A DNA stretch of 59,185 nucleotides, from positions 1,738,150 through 1,797,334 of the forward strand of contig CP070695.1 of NCBI GenBank assembly GCA_020353515.1. The letters run 5' to 3'. Both the position numbers and the translations under genes were made by a program. Source of the stretch: Candidatus Heimdallarchaeota archaeon (GTDB lineage: Archaea; Asgardarchaeota; Heimdallarchaeia; Hodarchaeales; Hodarchaeaceae). Positions 26,633 through 34,869 of this stretch are shown here, one piece after another; the first letter of the stretch is position 1, and every line of letters starts with the position of its first letter. Under the pieces are notes generated by a model that saw only the letters and a list, made by a program, of their open reading frames with translations, was not told the origin of the DNA and searched no databases.

Positions 26633-28579
26633 TTGTCACGTAAGAACCCCAAATTGATCTTCATTCAAAGTGTCGCCCAACAAGAGCGCCGTTTAAGCCA
26701 AGAAATATCGTCGGAAGCTAAATCCTCAATCAAAACTCTTCAGCAATTCCCTAAACCCTACTATACAATAGCTGATGTGGAAGATCTAGTCGAAAAATTG
26801 AAACAAAAGATGCAAAATATCAATAAGACTGCTCATACGGAATTCTCAAAAATAGGACTGAAGGGAGTTGACAATATCGATTTAGCTGATATCGATACTA
26901 ATGTCACATTAGTTTCAAATGAAGAATTTGAACGATTAAAGGTAGAGAATCAGGAATTAACAGAAAAATTGGGTGAGGTTAAAGCACTTGAAGCGAAAAT
27001 AGATGACTTACAAATCTTATTGGACGAGAAAGAAACGGAAATAGCTCAGCTGCATGATCAATCTGGCATTGCCTCAGGAAAAGTTACATCGCAAATTGAG
27101 GATCTAAATCGCCTCCAAGGCGCTCTTGATGAAGCCCAACGTGATGCCAAGCAAGCTCTACAAGACCGTGAAAAGATGGAAACTGAATTTGAAACTGTTG
27201 GAAACGCATTGATGTCAGCACGACTTGAAATCGAGCAGCTTCAACAAGTTTTAGGAAATAAAGATCAAGAATTTGAGACACTTATTTCTGAGAAGAATAT
27301 TCAACTTGAAAATCTGAAGTCAGAGGTGCAAATTTTAAGTTCTCACTCAGAAGAGAACATCAAACTGAAAGAAACCGTTATTGTTCTTCAAAACGAGATC
27401 GATAAATTAAAAGATGAACATAGAGTGCAATTAGAAGAAAATACAAGGAACAATAGCCAATTAGCTCAACAAGTTAAAGACATGGAACTTGAAACAAATC
27501 AACTTAAAGACCAAATTTCTAAATTAGAACAAGAAAATGAGGATTTACTGTTAGACTCTGGGGAAACGAGCCAAGAAGCTGTAGCTATTCGGGAAAAATT
27601 AAACGAAAAGCAACAAATTCTTGACCAGAAAGAAGAGGAAAATAGAGAACTAATGCTGAAAGTTGAGAGAAGGGAAAAAGAATCTGAACAACTTTCAGAA
27701 CAGTTAAATAATCTTAAACAGGAATATAAACAAGTAAAACAAAATTTCGAGATGTTAACACTAGAAATAACAACTCAAAAACAAGAACTAAGTGAGAAAA
27801 CAGTAGAAATTGAAGAATTGCAGGAAAAAGTAGACAACTCGCAAGACTTGGCAGAAACTGCTTTGACCTCCCAGCGTTTATTGAAAACAAAAGTAAAAGA
27901 TTTAGAGACAGATCTAAAGGGTAAAAATGAGCGTATCCAAGGAATTGAATCTGATCGAAATGAATTACGTGAATCTCTTGCCAACATGAAAATCGAACAC
28001 GAAAAGCAAAAATCCCTAATAACAGACCTTAAAACCCAACTTGGTACAAAAAGTCGTGAATTGGAAGAGGGTCAGAAAGATTTAGAATTATTAAGACAAA
28101 GACAGGAAGAGATAACCCAACAGGCAGATGATTCTCGCTCCAAACAAGCTGAGATTGCACGAGAGCGTGATAAATATGAGGGTACAATAAAAGATCTTCA
28201 AGCACAGTTGAAAGACACAAAATCAGAGAAAGAACGCCTTGATAAGAAATCTAAAGAAATCCAAGCGGAAATGACTGAGAAAGATGGTGAAATCCAATCT
28301 CTCTCAAAAACAATTAAACAGTTAGAAAATAAATCGACCAATTTAATGGCTGCTGTTGAAACTTTAAGGATTAACCTAGCCAAGAATCCTAAATATGCGA
28401 TTCTGTTTGTCCTTCAAGATATCCAACAAGCAACATTGAAGGAACTTGCTAAAACTGTTGCTATTCAGAATGTTTTTGCATCTCGCCTTTTGAAAGAGCT
28501 TGAAAATGAGGGATGGATTACTTTCAATGAGACAACTGGTCAGGTGACTCTGAAGAAAGCACTTCTAGAAATAGACTAA
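26633..28579 (+). CDS. Long coiled-coil protein with C-terminal winged-helix domain
   Basis: About 480 aa of heptad-rich E/K/Q/L sequence with no ATPase motifs. C-terminus KYAILFVLQ..ATLKELAKTVAI...ASRLLKELENEGWITF fits a wHTH. Confidence 0.8.
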   Translation: MSRKNPKLIFIQSVAQQERRLSQEISSEAKSSIKTLQQFPKPYYTIADVEDLVEKLKQKMQNINKTAHTEFSKIGLKGVDNIDLADIDTNVTLVSNEEFERLKVENQELTEKLGEVKALEAKIDDLQILLDEKETEIAQLHDQSGIASGKVTSQIEDLNRLQGALDEAQRDAKQALQDREKMETEFETVGNALMSARLEIEQLQQVLGNKDQEFETLISEKNIQLENLKSEVQILSSHSEENIKLKETVIVLQNEIDKLKDEHRVQLEENTRNNSQLAQQVKDMELETNQLKDQISKLEQENEDLLLDSGETSQEAVAIREKLNEKQQILDQKEEENRELMLKVERREKESEQLSEQLNNLKQEYKQVKQNFEMLTLEITTQKQELSEKTVEIEELQEKVDNSQDLAETALTSQRLLKTKVKDLETDLKGKNERIQGIESDRNELRESLANMKIEHEKQKSLITDLKTQLGTKSRELEEGQKDLELLRQRQEEITQQADDSRSKQAEIARERDKYEGTIKDLQAQLKDTKSEKERLDKKSKEIQAEMTEKDGEIQSLSKTIKQLENKSTNLMAAVETLRINLAKNPKYAILFVLQDIQQATLKELAKTVAIQNVFASRLLKELENEGWITFNETTGQVTLKKALLEID

Positions 28580-28629: not shown

Positions 28630-29484
28630 ATGGATTTTAAACTAATCTTCAAATTATGTCAAGAGAATTTAATAGGTCTCGATAAAGAAATTCGGCTAAT
28701 CCTAGCCGCAATCAATAGTCACATCCCGACAGTCATTGAGGGGGAATCAGGGGTAGGCAAAACAGAATTGGTAAAAACTATCGCCAATGCTCTTAATCGG
28801 CCCTTTTTTCGCGTGGATGGTGATGAAAATCTTACAATTACCCATCTTCGGGGATGGTTTGATCCACCATTGGTTATGAAGACAGGATTTGGAGAGAAAA
28901 GTTTTATTCCTGGTCCCCTTGTGAATAGCATGCAACAGGGAGGGTTATTTTTCTTCAATGAGGTAAATCGCGCACCAAGTGAATCCATAAATGGTGTTCT
29001 TGCAGCTCTAGATGAACGGCAGATTGAGATTCCCCAACTTGGTCGCGTTCAAGCAACCAAAGAATTTTACTCTATTTTTGCGCGAAATCCTTCAGAATAT
29101 ATAGGAACAAATCCTTTGCCTGAAGCTTTCTTTGATAGATGTATTTTGGTTCGACTAAAACATAAATCTGGTGAAGAAGCAGAAAAAATCGTAAAACTTC
29201 GCACTAACTGTTCTGATAATGATCTAATAACTAAAGTCGTACTTTTTACGGACCAAACGAGAGTATCACCTTATTTTGAGGCTGGAGCGAGTGTTCGTGC
29301 TGCCATTCAACTTACTCAGCTTCTAAAGAATAGATCAATGACTCCTGAGCATGTTTACCCGGCTATCAATGCAGTTTATGCTGGTAAGGTACGACTTCAT
29401 CCAGATATTACTAAAGGTATAGAGGATTGCCTTTTTGAGATTGCAGAACCAATTTTCTTCCCTCCAGATTCAAAAAAATTCTAG
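28630..29484 (+). CDS. MoxR/CbbQ-family AAA+ ATPase
   Basis: Walker A GESGVGKT, FIPGPL, Walker B FFFNEVNR, sensor region RNP, LPEAFFDR, SVRAAI. Confidence 0.9.
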   Translation: MDFKLIFKLCQENLIGLDKEIRLILAAINSHIPTVIEGESGVGKTELVKTIANALNRPFFRVDGDENLTITHLRGWFDPPLVMKTGFGEKSFIPGPLVNSMQQGGLFFFNEVNRAPSESINGVLAALDERQIEIPQLGRVQATKEFYSIFARNPSEYIGTNPLPEAFFDRCILVRLKHKSGEEAEKIVKLRTNCSDNDLITKVVLFTDQTRVSPYFEAGASVRAAIQLTQLLKNRSMTPEHVYPAINAVYAGKVRLHPDITKGIEDCLFEIAEPIFFPPDSKKF

Positions 29485-29507
29485 GGCGGGACAAGGATCC
29501 CGCCTTA
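29472..29507 (+). other. Putative -1 programmed ribosomal frameshift signal (slippery heptamer + hairpin)
   Basis: A_AAA_AAA at 29472-29478 in the ATPase frame, followed by hairpin TAGGGCGGGA-CAAGGA-TCCCGCCTTA (29482-29507). The -1 frame is open into the vWA ORF. Confidence 0.7.
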
Positions 29508-29519
29508 CATGTTCAAGAT

Positions 29520-30497
29520 GTGAATATTCAAAGCTCCTTAGTTGAGAAAATCTATGAATATAAATTACAGAATAGGTTGAATACAGAAGAAGCCTTGAAT
29601 TTCGCACAACAAGCGATAGAAACACATAATCTACGTGCTGTTGAAATTATAGCTGAAAACTTTCCTCGAACTATTGTAGACGTTTTACAAACTGAGTCTG
29701 ATATGGCTAATATCATTTTAGAATCTAGTTCTCTATTTTTTCAGATTAAAGATTTTTTTACTCCTGAGGAAAAGCAATTATTATTAAAAAAAATCGTTCC
29801 GAAATTGTTTAGACACGCTGAAAGAATTTTTCAAGCTATTGATCGCTCAAAATATCCAGTTAAAATTCCATATACTCCTGGCATTTCTTGGCATTTAGAA
29901 GATACAATCGCAAATTTTCTTCTTTCAGGTGATTTTAATTTTACCTACAAACATGTTGTTTGCACTAAACGACAAAGAAAACAAAAATGTATTGTCTTGT
30001 TAATAGACAAAAGTCATTCAGTAATCTCTTCTCTTAAGCTGATAATTCTCACTTCGATTTTGTTCAGTCTATCCATGAATGCAAAAGATATTGCCTTAAT
30101 TGGTTTTGATACCCAACCAGAAGTAATAAAAGGGTTTATTGAATCTCAAATTACCACACAAGACATTATAACTCGTTTAGTAAATATTAGGTCAGGAGGT
30201 AAGACAAATATCTTTTCTGCACTACATGCTGTGAAGAAAGAATTCTCTCATCAAATTGGATATAAAAAAACACTTGTAATTATTTCTGATCTCCTTGCTA
30301 CAAGTGGGATGGATTTTCTACCTGTTCTAAAACAAATGGAGGATGTTCGAATTATCCTAACTCCTAGACGACGAACTCTTCAACTTACAGCTCCAATATT
30401 AGGAAAATTACAAAAATTACATAATATAAAGCTTTACTTGATGACAACTGATGAGCGATCAATTCCTGGACTTTTAGAGAAAGTCCTTTACGATTAA
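29520..30497 (+). CDS. von Willebrand factor A (MIDAS) domain protein, MoxR partner
   Basis: LLIDKSHS (DxSxS), IGFD, GGKTN, VIISD. GTG start without an obvious RBS; its frame is open upstream to 29439. Confidence 0.88.
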   Translation: MNIQSSLVEKIYEYKLQNRLNTEEALNFAQQAIETHNLRAVEIIAENFPRTIVDVLQTESDMANIILESSSLFFQIKDFFTPEEKQLLLKKIVPKLFRHAERIFQAIDRSKYPVKIPYTPGISWHLEDTIANFLLSGDFNFTYKHVVCTKRQRKQKCIVLLIDKSHSVISSLKLIILTSILFSLSMNAKDIALIGFDTQPEVIKGFIESQITTQDIITRLVNIRSGGKTNIFSALHAVKKEFSHQIGYKKTLVIISDLLATSGMDFLPVLKQMEDVRIILTPRRRTLQLTAPILGKLQKLHNIKLYLMTTDERSIPGLLEKVLYD

Positions 30498-30501
30498 GAA
30501 C

Positions 30502-31995
30502 TTAAATTGCTTTTCCTGAATTTTGGGTTTCTTTAATCACTTGTTCAACAAGTTCTTCATATTCTTTCAGGTGAAAAGTGCGATAAACGGTAAGAATCCT
30601 TTCACGGAAACTAGGATGATCACTACCTTTTTCAGCTGTTTGGAATAGTTCGTGTTCAAATACCATTTTATCTGGTTGAGCAATTAATGTGGCGATGAAA
30701 CTTGAAATCTCCTCTTGTTCTAGGGTTTGACTGGCATCATAATCAAAACGTCGCCAATCAATGGTTTTCTCTTTAAGAACGCTAGGTGCAAAATCAGCCT
30801 CTGCAGTTTCTTCATCTTTTACTTTAGCAAAATATTTTGCTCTTCTTTCTAATAGAGAAGGTACAGCAGCCTCAATAAGTTGCGATCTCGCATTTATATC
30901 TAAATTTATATCATAATTCGTGACTAATTCTTCAAACTTCTCCTCTAAGAATAAACTTGGAGCAATTTCTCGAGCGACATCCTCATTGAGCTGTGTTTTA
31001 GGAAATCGTTGATATACTTTTCTCAGAAAGGTACTCGATGGTTTTTTTTCTTCAGAAAGGCTTGAAAGCCATTCTATTTCTCTCGAAAGAACTTGCATAG
31101 TTTCACTCCGTTGACCTAGGTGGATCAATGAATTGATTAAAACATCCGAACCAACCAATTCAGCCGCAAAATAATCAGATAAATATTCTGCTTGATGATT
31201 AGCGGAGGAAAGAAAATGAACAGTAATTTTCGTGACAATCGCTAATATTAGGTAAACTAATCCTAAGAATATTATCCGTTCAACAGCAATGCCTAAATTT
31301 AACGTATCAAAAAGGGCATCTAGTATACCAGTTACAATCTGAAGATAGATGAAGAGATAGACAAGGTTAAGGAATAATCTTGGAATTGAAAGAATCAGAC
31401 GGATAAGGCTATCACTGTTTTTCACATGAGCAAGTTCATGGGCAATAACTGCTTCTATTTCCCTATCGCTTAAAATCTCTAAAACATTAGTATTGAGAAC
31501 CAGATATGGTTTTCGAAAAAAGGGAATCGGTATAAGATCAAGAGAAAATGCATTAGGTACTGCTTTTCGATAAACATAAATCCTTGACACTTTAATTCTT
31601 GCTTCTTTCGACACCCGTGTTACTAAGTTAATAGTTTTTTCAACTAATGGAGCTTCTTCAGGAGCATATGCAGGTCCATAAAGTGGTTCTGGGTAGATCT
31701 GAATCATATTCTTATTCGAAAAGACTACATTTACTAGGACAGCTAAAAGAAGTAATTGTAAACCAGCAGTTAGTGCAACTAATATAGCTGTAAATCGAGG
31801 GTCAGACATTGGATTAATGGAAATATAGAACCCTAGAACATACCTTTGGGTTATCCACTGGATATCCAAGTATTCTGTTTTCTTTTCTTGACTAATACTA
31901 ATCCAAGAAACAATTATGATTTGAACCAAAGCAAGTGCGAAGAATATTGCTGCATTAGCAATGCGAGATACTCTGGTTCTTAGTATTGAAACCAT
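30502..31995 (-). CDS. M48 (HtpX-like) membrane zinc metalloprotease
   Basis: N-terminal TMs, PNAF, AVIAHELAH (HExxH), EYLSD, DHPS..ERI. Large insert containing an EF-hand-like loop. Confidence 0.88.
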   Translation of the reverse strand: MVSILRTRVSRIANAAIFFALALVQIIIVSWISISQEKKTEYLDIQWITQRYVLGFYISINPMSDPRFTAILVALTAGLQLLLLAVLVNVVFSNKNMIQIYPEPLYGPAYAPEEAPLVEKTINLVTRVSKEARIKVSRIYVYRKAVPNAFSLDLIPIPFFRKPYLVLNTNVLEILSDREIEAVIAHELAHVKNSDSLIRLILSIPRLFLNLVYLFIYLQIVTGILDALFDTLNLGIAVERIIFLGLVYLILAIVTKITVHFLSSANHQAEYLSDYFAAELVGSDVLINSLIHLGQRSETMQVLSREIEWLSSLSEEKKPSSTFLRKVYQRFPKTQLNEDVAREIAPSLFLEEKFEELVTNYDINLDINARSQLIEAAVPSLLERRAKYFAKVKDEETAEADFAPSVLKEKTIDWRRFDYDASQTLEQEEISSFIATLIAQPDKMVFEHELFQTAEKGSDHPSFRERILTVYRTFHLKEYEELVEQVIKETQNSGKAI

Positions 31996-32100: not shown

Positions 32101-34869
32101 TTACCAATAACCTGCCAATTTTCCTAAACGAGGAATTCGATGGGCAAGAAATGTACGAACTTCATCCACTATCACAAGAATGCTCCCAGAGGCAATTATA
32201 ATAACCCAATCGATTGCATTAAGCGCAGTAGTATTGAAAAATGGTTGGAAGAAAGAACTATAAACTATTAAGATGTGAAGCAGAATTGAACTAGCGATCG
32301 CAAGCAAGAGATATGGATTTCTAAAGAACTCTTTTCCTAGTAATGAGTGTTCTTCTTTACGGATGTTGAGAGCCATTATCATTTGAAACATTATCAACAT
32401 TGTGAAAGCAACAGTTCGAGCATGAATCTGTACCTCTTCAGATGGGAGTTGACCTGTAAGAACATTAGAATACATATACAAGAAAAATAGTAACAATGTT
32501 CCAATGGCAATAATAATCCCTGAATAGATTATGAAAAAGATTGATTTATGGGTTAAAATTGGTTCTTTAGGATCACGAGGATGTCTAATCATGACGTCAG
32601 GATCAGGAGGATCAACTCCCATGGCTAACGCAGGAAGACCATCTGTTACTAGATTCACCCAAAGAATTTGAATGGCTAACAAGGGTAATATAGGTGTTTG
32701 AAAGATCAAGGAAGTGAGAAGAATACCAAAAAACATTACAGCAATTTCTCCAGCGTTACAGGAGAGTAGGTAGAGGATAAATTTTCTCATATTGTCATAT
32801 ATCGTCCTTCCTTCAAGGATAGCGCCAACTATAGTGGAGAAATCATCATCTGCCAAAATCATATCAGACGCTTCTTTTGAGACATCTGTTCCTGCAATTC
32901 CCATGGCTACACCAATGTCAGCTCGCTTTAAAGCGGGGGCATCATTTACTCCGTCTCCCGTCATAGCAACAATTTGATTATTTGATTTTAATGCAGAAAC
33001 AATTTTTAATTTGTGTTCTGGAGATACCCGAGCATAGACATTAACGTCTCCAACTATGGATTCAAATTCCTCATCACTCATATTAGCTAATTGATTACCT
33101 TCAAGATAATGGGAAGAATCTTCAGAAGAGACTAAACCAATCTCTGTGGCAACTGCGACTGCTGTTTTTAGGTGATCACCTGTAATCATTACGGGCCGAA
33201 TACCAGCTTTCTTGCAAATCTCAATAGATTTCTTTGTACCTTGTCTTGGAGGATCCATGATAGCCATAGCCCCGACATAAACCAAATTTGACTCTATTTC
33301 TTCTGAATCCTCAGATAATATCACACGTTCAATTTTATCTTTTACTGGGTCTACAGATTTATACGCCATACCAAGCATTCGATAACCAGTCTTAGCAAGG
33401 TTCTGTTCGGCTTCCTCTAATCTATATCGTGTATCCTGATCAAGTGGTTTAATCTCGCCATTAGAGTAATAATACTTACATAGGTTGATCAGTACATCTG
33501 GAGCTCCTTTTGTGTAAACAAAATGCTCCCCCTGGAGATTTTTAACTAGCACACTCATACGTTTTGAATCAGAATCAAAAGGAACTTCGAAAAGACGTTT
33601 ATATTTTGAACGATCTAAAACATCCATCCTTTTTGCTACTCTTAATAATGCTATTTCAGTGGGATCACCTATATCTACATCTGTTGAGCCTCCCTCTTTA
33701 GATTCTGCTAGTTGGGCATTGTTACATTCCAGACCAATGGTAAGGATCAAGCAAATTACGTTATTCAAGGGTATCTTCTTAGTTATACGATATTCTTCGT
33801 CAACAGTTAGAATCTTTCTGACTGTCATTTTATTCCTTGTGAGTGTTCCTGTTTTATCAGAACAGATGACTGTAGTTGAACCAAGTGTTTCTACAGAAGG
33901 AAGACGTCTAATAATGGCATTTTTCCTGCTCATACGTTGAACTCCAAGAGCTAACGCAAGGGTGACCACTGCAGGTAAACCCTCGGGAACAGCAGCTACA
34001 GCTAAACCAACAGCAACAATGAACATTTCGATTGCTTCTTGATTTAACAGAATTCCAATAAAGAAAATGACCGCACAGATAGTTAAACTACCAATACCAA
34101 TCCATTTTCCTAGGGTAGCCAATCGTCTCTGGAGAGGGGTTTCCTCTGTCTTTTCCTCTAATAATCCTTTAGCTATTTTTCCAAATTCAGTCTGCATACC
34201 AGTTTTGATAATTAGAGCTTGACCCCGTCCTCGTGTGACACTAGTACCACTGAATACAGAATTTTCCATATCGGCAATAGGTGCATATTGCAGCACTTGA
34301 CTCATTGCCTCCTTTGCAGCTGGAAAAGACTCTCCAGTAAGCGCTGATTCATCAACACGAAGAGAATGTGATTCAAGAAGACGACCATCCGCGGGAATTT
34401 TATCTCCCTCTTCGATCAGAATAATATCTCCTGGCACTAAAAACTGAGCTTCGATTCGCTGTTTCTTACCTTCTCGAATGACAGTCGAAAAGGGAGCAGC
34501 CATGGACTTTAATGCTTCGATGGACTTTTCCGCTTTATACTCCTGAACAAAACCGAAAAAAGCGTTAAACATGACGATGGCAGAAATCGCGATAGCATCA
34601 ATAAAATATTCCATTCGTTGATGCTCATCAGGGGAAAATATACCGATTGTAACTGATATAATTAAAGCTACAAGTAATATGATAACTAAAGGGTCTTTAA
34701 ATTGTTCGAAAAAAAGGAAAATTGGATGTCTTTTCTTTGCTCGCTCTAATTCATTGGAACCATATTGCTTAAGTCTCTCCTCTGCTTCATCATTTGATAA
34801 TCCGTTATCATCCACCCCATATTGATCTAATAAATCTTCAATGTTCTCTGAATGCCAGTAATTGCCCAT
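32101..34869 (-). CDS. Type IIA (SERCA/PMR1-like) cation-transporting P-type ATPase, likely Ca2+
   Basis: TGES, VAAVPEGLP, DKTGTLT, KGAPD, MITGDH, GDGVNDAP, NAGE, WVNLVTDGLPA. Confidence 0.95.
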   Translation of the reverse strand: MGNYWHSENIEDLLDQYGVDDNGLSNDEAEERLKQYGSNELERAKKRHPIFLFFEQFKDPLVIILLVALIISVTIGIFSPDEHQRMEYFIDAIAISAIVMFNAFFGFVQEYKAEKSIEALKSMAAPFSTVIREGKKQRIEAQFLVPGDIILIEEGDKIPADGRLLESHSLRVDESALTGESFPAAKEAMSQVLQYAPIADMENSVFSGTSVTRGRGQALIIKTGMQTEFGKIAKGLLEEKTEETPLQRRLATLGKWIGIGSLTICAVIFFIGILLNQEAIEMFIVAVGLAVAAVPEGLPAVVTLALALGVQRMSRKNAIIRRLPSVETLGSTTVICSDKTGTLTRNKMTVRKILTVDEEYRITKKIPLNNVICLILTIGLECNNAQLAESKEGGSTDVDIGDPTEIALLRVAKRMDVLDRSKYKRLFEVPFDSDSKRMSVLVKNLQGEHFVYTKGAPDVLINLCKYYYSNGEIKPLDQDTRYRLEEAEQNLAKTGYRMLGMAYKSVDPVKDKIERVILSEDSEEIESNLVYVGAMAIMDPPRQGTKKSIEICKKAGIRPVMITGDHLKTAVAVATEIGLVSSEDSSHYLEGNQLANMSDEEFESIVGDVNVYARVSPEHKLKIVSALKSNNQIVAMTGDGVNDAPALKRADIGVAMGIAGTDVSKEASDMILADDDFSTIVGAILEGRTIYDNMRKFILYLLSCNAGEIAVMFFGILLTSLIFQTPILPLLAIQILWVNLVTDGLPALAMGVDPPDPDVMIRHPRDPKEPILTHKSIFFIIYSGIIIAIGTLLLFFLYMYSNVLTGQLPSEEVQIHARTVAFTMLIMFQMIMALNIRKEEHSLLGKEFFRNPYLLLAIASSILLHILIVYSSFFQPFFNTTALNAIDWVIIIASGSILVIVDEVRTFLAHRIPRLGKLAGYW

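Follow-up and report, generated by a model that had tools for sequence, protein, structure and literature searches.

A probable -1 ribosomal frameshift joining a MoxR-type AAA+ ATPase to its vWA partner in a Heimdallarchaeota genome

Introduction

How is a von Willebrand factor A (vWA) gene expressed that lies directly behind a MoxR-type AAA+ ATPase gene, in another reading frame and without a convincing start of its own? This question is raised by a 59,185-nt stretch of a Candidatus Heimdallarchaeota archaeon genome (GenBank assembly GCA_020353515.1, contig CP070695.1, positions 1,738,150 to 1,797,334 of the forward strand), called the window in the following; all positions refer to the window unless marked as genome positions. 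A preliminary description of its sequence had proposed that a -1 programmed ribosomal frameshift (PRF) fuses the two reading frames. We come to the view that the ATPase gene probably forms, together with the start-less vWA gene that follows it, one recoded gene, which would provide a short ATPase and, via a -1 slip, a long ATPase-vWA protein. Given the comparative sequence evidence, we assign a probability of about 0.8 to a -1 ribosomal frameshift making the fusion.

The signal is a textbook one, i.e., heptamer, 6-nt spacer and hairpin, and it is kept across a genus of the Hodarchaeales, with sister sites in paralogues and in most of the sampled Asgard families. If the reading is true, it would supply a robust and widely conserved recoding model for archaeal translation in the closest relatives of eukaryotes, and hundreds of vWA genes now annotated as truncated or 'start-less' would be corrected. 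Furthermore, the principle known from chlD, where a single mRNA yields an AAA+ motor and its vWA-bearing form at a fixed ratio, would reach the MoxR-vWA chaperones. The known precedent is frameshifted chlD (PMC3711429, PMC9227772, PMC5009743), while the MoxR-vWA and Asgard case appears to be new: the literature searched for MoxR and frameshifting or for Asgard archaea and ribosomal frameshifting held nothing relevant.

The candidate frameshift signal

The 0-frame open reading frame (ORF) at 28630..29484 (+ strand) encodes the MoxR-type AAA+ ATPase of 284 aa and ends with TCA AAA AAA TTC TAG. Its A7 run at 29472..29478 forms the slippery heptamer A_AAA_AAA in X_XXY_YYZ phase (TC-A AAA AAA). It is followed by the 6-nt spacer TTCTAG (29479..29484), which contains the 0-frame stop TAG at 29482-29484, and by a putative stimulatory hairpin at 29485..29504, in which GGCGGGA and TCCCGCC enclose the 6-nt loop caagga. 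RNAfold lengthens this hairpin to 10 bp over 29482-29507. The fold of 29465-29530 reaches -20.6 kcal/mol (z = -3.7), and 1 of 200 dinucleotide shuffles was as stable. The -1 frame is open from 29439 through 30497. Its part read after the slip (29478..30497, + strand) comprises 339 codons plus stop, and the first ATG/GTG/TTG in it is the GTG at 29520..29522, which ORF callers take as the vWA start. No GGAGG/GGTG-like, i.e., Shine-Dalgarno (SD)-like, motif is found upstream of this GTG, in line with the absence of a clear ribosome binding site reported before. The preliminary description was also right to the base about the heptamer, the stem and the opening of the -1 frame, and its product sizes are reproduced by reading 28630-29478 and then 29478-30494, which gives predicted products of 284 aa and 622 aa.

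A canonical -1 PRF site combines a 0-frame X_XXY_YYZ heptamer, a stable structure 5-9 nt downstream and an open -1 ORF with a conserved product that has no start of its own. The locus offers A_AAA_AAA, a hairpin of 7-10 bp at a distance of 6 nt and a conserved vWA frame that is start-less in 13/20 orthologous loci (see below). The signal at the ATPase/vWA junction exceeds chance, because the hairpin motif (GCGGGA-N4-8-TCCCGC) occurs a single time in the 4.94-Mb genome and an in-phase A_AAA_AAN within the last five codon pairs is found in 2.7% of the ORFs of >=150 aa genome-wide, yet in 20/20 orthologues.

We considered two other origins of the hairpin. A repeat or mobile element was rejected given that the motif is unique in the genome, and an intrinsic terminator was rejected since a T-run follows the hairpin in only some orthologues. 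An Rfam scan of 29300-29700 matched no family. ARAGORN, used without intron handling in search of the tRNA-Lys species, reported 15 tRNAs in the genome.

Upstream of the heptamer we observed a T-rich run (T4-T8, conserved I-F-F codons) at 29445-29470, i.e., 6-20 nt before the A-run. Both runs together read T7-CCC-A7 in some orthologues. For the T-rich run, pairing with the A-run is conceivable, as is a resemblance to an archaeal oligo-T terminator within the ORF.

Conservation among orthologues

To follow the signal through evolution, we searched 41 related genomes with the vWA protein and obtained 20 orthologous loci of the same genus, with identities of 50-78% for the vWA protein and 63-86% for the ATPase. 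The loci belong to Hodarchaeota/Heimdallarchaeota metagenome-assembled genomes, which fits the Asgard-like host suspected earlier. In all 20 of them, the vWA frame is -1 relative to the ATPase and an in-phase A_AAA_AAA/C/T or a longer A-run is present; in seven orthologues the run is A6 with C or T behind it, which gives A_AAA_AAC/T in phase. At a distance of exactly 6 nt from the heptamer, 17/20 orthologues carry the same hairpin, [G/A]GCGGGA-N6-TCCCGC[N]. That is, the stop position and the spacer length are conserved, the latter being 6 nt in 17/17 hairpin-bearing orthologues. The comparison with orthologues that the preliminary description had suggested thus turned out in its favor, both for slip site and frame relation, for which no random offsets were found, and for the hairpin.

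The three loci without a complete hairpin (L007, L014, L015) have A10-A11 runs. It looks as if hairpin loss were compensated by a longer A-run, since in reporter tests of chlD frameshifting rose with run length, i.e., from 10% for A7 to 40% for A9 and 63% for A11 (PMC3711429).

With regard to sequencing, 8/8 metagenome contigs that cover the junction keep the -1 phase and an in-phase A_AAA_AAN site (seven with A7 and hairpin, one with A15). Together with the 20 loci, the -1 phase is concordant in 28 independent assemblies, closed genomes included. None of the 20 orthologues is fused in frame, though one extra A would join the ORFs. This suggests that the short ATPase product is needed as well.

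Start codons of the vWA frame

If the vWA protein were made from its own start, a start codon should be found at a comparable place in all loci. Across the orthologues, the first in-frame ATG/GTG/TTG lies between 0 and 575 nt from the slip site; the distance is 146-575 nt in several of them, with the maximum in L008. Only 6/20 orthologues have such a codon in the interval from the slip site to the first conserved vWA block (LLExIYEY), and 13/20 loci have none between the last upstream stop of the -1 frame and that block. The GTG at 29520 is not conserved. Initiation of the vWA protein at this GTG had been named beforehand as an observation that would speak against the frameshift, and the orthologues do not bear it out.

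The ORF itself is well preserved. Counted from the slip site, its length is 339-344 codons in every complete locus (19 orthologues), its mean column identity is 67%, and the MIDAS (metal ion-dependent adhesion site) residues D177, S179, S181, T243 and D271 are invariant down to about 50% identity. This pattern indicates that the vWA ORF is under purifying selection. It must then be translated, and the only way in which all loci could achieve this is by reading on from the ATPase frame.

Constraint on the hairpin

The hairpin region is also coding in the -1 frame, such that its conservation could reflect RNA structure or peptide. At the nucleotide level, heptamer and hairpin stand out as a conserved patch, with little conservation on either side. 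Among the 17 hairpin-bearing orthologues, the arms are invariant, the loop is free to vary and the flanks are variable. Only the outer hairpin pair varies (GC in 6 orthologues, AU in 3, GU in 2, unpaired in 5).

Codon choice helps to separate both possibilities. In every hairpin locus, the arms use CGG and CCC, which account for 7.6% of the Arg and 15% of the Pro codons, respectively, in a genome of 35.8% GC. Likewise, the two slip-site codons are never AAG, compared to 28% of the Lys codons genome-wide. Hairpin-less orthologues also lack the RD..PA peptide that the arms encode, which implies that the protein does not require it. A role as RNA structure is thus supported by the use of rare codons, the free loop and the different hairpins at the same place in paralogues.

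The two predicted products

The ATPase ORF scores above the Pfam cut-offs for AAA_5 (74.8 bits) and AAA_3 (53.8 bits) and has a Walker A (GESGVGKT) and a Walker B motif (FFFNE), both conserved across 19 orthologues and in homologues that are fused in frame (see below). Together with the adjacent vWA protein with intact MIDAS, this identifies a MoxR-vWA pair. The ATPase does not fall into a named MoxR subfamily such as GvpN or NorQ/CbbQ: it scores 63.5 bits for GvpN (TIGR02640, cut-off 266.8), and NorQ and CbbQ chains match it with E-values of 1e-7 to 1e-4 only. The Walker B motif (28945-28965) reads Asn-Glu instead of Asp-Glu. Since N-E is common to all orthologues and to the in-frame fused homologues, it is a family trait rather than a sign of decay.

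The -1 ORF matches VWA_2 (Pfam, 39.4 bits). It consists of a linker (29478-29519), a helical domain (about 29520-29834) and the vWA/MIDAS domain (about 29856-30494) with the MIDAS motif D-x-S-x-S at 30006-30020. An AlphaFold2 model of the -1 product (predicted local distance difference test, pLDDT, of 80) shows the helical domain followed by the vWA domain, with residues 1-15 as disordered linker. For the vWA domain, the best Foldseek matches are the VWA domain of NorD (NorQD complexes) and the MIDAS domain of Rea1/MDN1; a profile of the vWA ORF gave no match at E <= 0.01 among PDB sequences.

Paralogues and the Asgard-wide sample

The genome contains two further MoxR-vWA pairs. In paralogue B (genome positions G000:C1:2713946-2713990), the ATPase ends with CG-T TTT TTA TAG, i.e., the slip site is U_UUU_UUA, and 8 nt after it follows a hairpin of other sequence (TCCCGAG-N6-CTCGGGA). 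The vWA frame is again -1 and has no usable start before its conserved IRLFGRL motif. Across 16 genomes of the genus, the hairpin of paralogue B is 98% paired, with an AU>GU>GC series at one pair. In paralogue C (genome positions 2931160-2931178), the ATPase ends with AG-A AAA AAA AAA TAG (A10). The -1 phase of the vWA frame recurs here, with the first in-frame start 119 nt downstream and no obvious hairpin. In the relatives L035 and L043, A10 is combined with an ATGA overlap.

Other families of the class show T_TTT_TTC/T followed by different downstream stems. One sister family serves as natural negative control: its vWA gene has its own ATG 10-13 nt past the stop and is in +1 phase, and its T-run is out of phase.

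We also inspected a phylum-wide sample of Asgard archaea. In 37/40 ATPase-only loci, which represent more than 15 families, the vWA frame is -1. At the stop, most of these loci show A_AAT_TTT or GAT TTT and then a stem. The remaining three loci are in +1 phase; one of them has an ATG 10 nt past the stop and another a GTG just before the stop. Some distant Asgard loci show TTGA overlaps, which could also support coupled reinitiation.

In many of the distant loci (L100-L139), a GAGGAGG-N5-6-CCTCC stem lies a few nt past the GAT TTT/AAT TTT motif; a conserved GATGA after the stem belongs to the coding sequence of the -1 frame. The GGAGG of this stem could pass for a Shine-Dalgarno sequence.

Homologues fused in frame

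Beyond the Asgard archaea, more than 300 homologues of 580-635 aa carry AAA_5 and VWA in one frame (Bathyarchaeia, Nitrososphaerales, Methanomethylicia and others). In the alignment, the slip site falls into the variable linker of these proteins. We examined the two closest in-frame relatives (L087:1086-2921, L088:2501-4321; P0003, P0005), in both of which the linker has A10 at the place that corresponds to the slip site. The A10 of L087 is followed by a 7-bp stem, and a -1 slip there would end after about 12 codons. Both loci hint at an inverse, dnaX-like scheme, i.e., the long form in frame and the short form by slipping. They are single metagenome contigs, such that a homopolymer miscount is possible. 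With regard to two other fused homologues, L084 is AT-rich with many chance heptamers, and the linker of L086 has no slippery site.

Proposed mechanism and alternatives

We propose that most ribosomes would stop at the TAG at 29482 and release the 284-aa MoxR-type AAA+ ATPase. The hairpin 6 nt downstream of the heptamer would stall a fraction of them with tRNA-Lys on A_AAA_AAA, where they may slip back by one base. Slipped ribosomes would read the -1 frame and produce the 622-aa ATPase-linker-helical-vWA(MIDAS) protein. By analogy with NorQ6:NorD1, this long form could supply a sub-stoichiometric, tethered vWA adaptor to the ATPase hexamer. Ribosomal -1 PRF fits the phase, the heptamer types (including A6 followed by C or T), the fixed spacing and the downstream structure. 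We infer from these patterns that the slip is ribosomal rather than transcriptional; both products are presumably needed.

Several observations weigh against this interpretation. The core pairs of the hairpin never vary, i.e., there is essentially no covariation within the orthologues. In the -1 frame, the arms code for R-D and P-A, and a constraint at the protein level is countered only via the codon choice described above. In the window, a complete vWA protein could also be initiated at the GTG, which lies 14 codons past the slip site. Because the orthologues share ancestry, a count such as 20/20 does not represent independent trials. Transcription, too, can slip at A7 and longer A-runs. Finally, fucA1 is the only cellular gene of archaea with an experimentally demonstrated -1 PRF (PMC8211752).

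The same long protein would result if RNA polymerase added one A within the A7, such that some mRNAs encode the fusion in frame and are decoded normally; an extra A yields the same product as a -1 shift. Such transcriptional slippage is suggested by the A9-A15 runs at the site in some orthologues and metagenome contigs as well as by the A10 of paralogue C and of the closest in-frame relatives, i.e., run lengths that are known to slip (PMC3711429, PMC5009743). On the other hand, the seven orthologues with only A6 plus C or T provide a run that is short for a polymerase but a classical heptamer for the ribosome, and polymerase slippage has no need for strict X_XXY_YYZ phasing. It would also be indifferent to the hairpin that is fixed 6 nt downstream in 17/20 loci, because a downstream hairpin is not yet transcribed when the polymerase passes the run. 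We thus regard transcriptional slippage as an unlikely sole source of the fusion; in the long-run loci (A9-A15), both kinds of slippage may act jointly.

We rate it as still less probable, i.e., very unlikely, that the locus consists of two ordinary genes, with vWA synthesis from the GTG at 29520 or by termination-reinitiation at a non-canonical codon and with a hairpin that serves mRNA stability, processing or attenuation. In this locus, the GTG does precede the first conserved block, one related family encodes a separate vWA protein with its own ATG, some distant loci show TTGA or ATGA stop/start overlaps, and in a few orthologues a T-run follows the hairpin. Yet the GTG is neither conserved nor preceded by an SD-like motif, and 13/20 orthologues have no ATG/GTG/TTG before the conserved block; a separate start of the vWA protein would be open to a minority of the loci only. 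Moreover, two ordinary genes leave the in-phase heptamer, the fixed spacing, the exclusive -1 phase and the trade-off between hairpin loss and A-run length unaccounted for. An artefact or decay, i.e., a miscounted homopolymer (a true A8 and thus a plain fusion) or a recent frameshifted pseudogene, can practically be dismissed. A7 runs are error-prone in sequencing and the closest in-frame homologues have A10 at the same place, but all 28 independent assemblies, closed genomes among them, agree in phase, the vWA ORF is intact and its MIDAS residues are invariant at 50% divergence, and stop position and spacer are conserved.

Relation to known systems

The closest parallel is frameshifted chlD (PMC3711429, PMC9227772, PMC5009743), and the preliminary description had rightly invoked it as a real precedent (PMC3711429, PMC9227772). 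As here, an AAA+ ATPase becomes an AAA+-linker-vWA protein after a -1 shift at A_AAA_AAR or poly-A plus a structure, the locus is annotated as two adjacent genes, and other taxa encode in-frame fusions; frameshifted chlD is known from bacteria and archaea. The present case differs in its ATPase, which is of the AAA_5/AAA_3 MoxR type and not of the Mg_chelatase family, as well as in host lineage (Asgard), hairpin and gene neighborhood. Mg_chelatase (PF01078) gave no match to the ATPase at E <= 0.1, and TIGR02031 scores 18.1 bits compared to a cut-off of 499.55. CobN/ChlH (PF02514) was not found in the closed 4.94-Mb genome (96% complete), where the controls were positive. Since CobN is absent and the ATPase falls outside the Mg_chelatase family, we rejected a chelatase function.

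Among archaea, the alpha-L-fucosidase gene fucA1 of Sulfolobus solfataricus (PMC1616953; PMC8211752) is likewise a cellular gene of two ORFs joined by a -1 shift. Its heptamer A_AAA_AAT, accompanied by a putative downstream stem-loop, is also used by the orthologue L012. fucA1 is split in two strains only and full-length in other Sulfolobales, whereas the split described here is genus-wide with related sites throughout the phylum. In addition, two functional products are plausible here in contrast to one for fucA1. A 2021 review of archaeal recoding lists as cellular cases only fucA1 and the predicted chlD (PMC8211752).

NorQ/NorD and CbbQ/CbbO (PMC9976466) show the same pairing of an AAA_5 MoxR ATPase with a MIDAS-bearing vWA partner, and the vWA fold predicted here is nearest to the NorD VWA. 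They differ in being separate genes with their own starts, whose products are not covalently joined. The NorQ hexamer binds one NorD (PMC9976466), which provides a rationale for a vWA-bearing long form in the minority; one vWA per hexamer is plausible by this analogy. Escherichia coli dnaX (tau/gamma; PMC3711429 and established knowledge) resembles the locus in that an A-rich heptamer and a hairpin set the ratio of two AAA+ products with a common N-terminus. The dnaX shift truncates the protein, while the shift proposed here extends it.

Midasin (Rea1/MDN1) shares AAA_5-type modules and one C-terminal MIDAS domain. It holds six AAA modules in one giant chain, whereas there is one per chain here, i.e., the locus does not encode six tandem AAA modules and a MIDAS in one polypeptide. 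A special kinship to midasin, suggested by a 134-bit PDB match, was rejected: six modules with about 40 bits each add up to this score, and a single module is no closer than the bacterial MoxR 2r44 with its 41 bits.

Because all three MoxR-vWA modules of this genome have their own slip site, one may speculate that recoding is the usual expression route of Asgard MoxR-vWA machines. Its efficiency might then be tuned to roughly one tethered MIDAS adaptor for each AAA+ hexamer. A ring of five short chains and one long chain would hold six AAA_5 modules and one MIDAS domain on a flexible linker. This would equal the composition of eukaryotic midasin (Rea1), put together from two translation products in the archaeal lineage nearest to eukaryotes, and could represent a grade in the origin of midasin. 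We consider this extended scenario a long shot.

Gene neighborhood

Downstream of the vWA frame, a convergent gene for an M48-family peptidase is encoded on the - strand (30502-31995). It is followed by an ordinary gene for a 922-aa P-type cation-transporting ATPase (E1-E2 ATPase, Cation_ATPase_N/C; 32101-34869, - strand), which is unlinked to the finding. On the upstream side, a 648-aa coiled-coil protein with a C-terminal MarR-type winged helix (Pfam; 26633..28579, + strand) ends 50 nt before the ATPase start. Its gene is found directly upstream of the ATPase in 18 orthologous loci, i.e., synteny is kept within the genus, and possibly the protein is an operon partner. Over the same genus, the coiled-coil/winged-helix and M48 genes flank the recoded gene in 18-19 orthologous loci, and either neighbor may be a client or a regulator.

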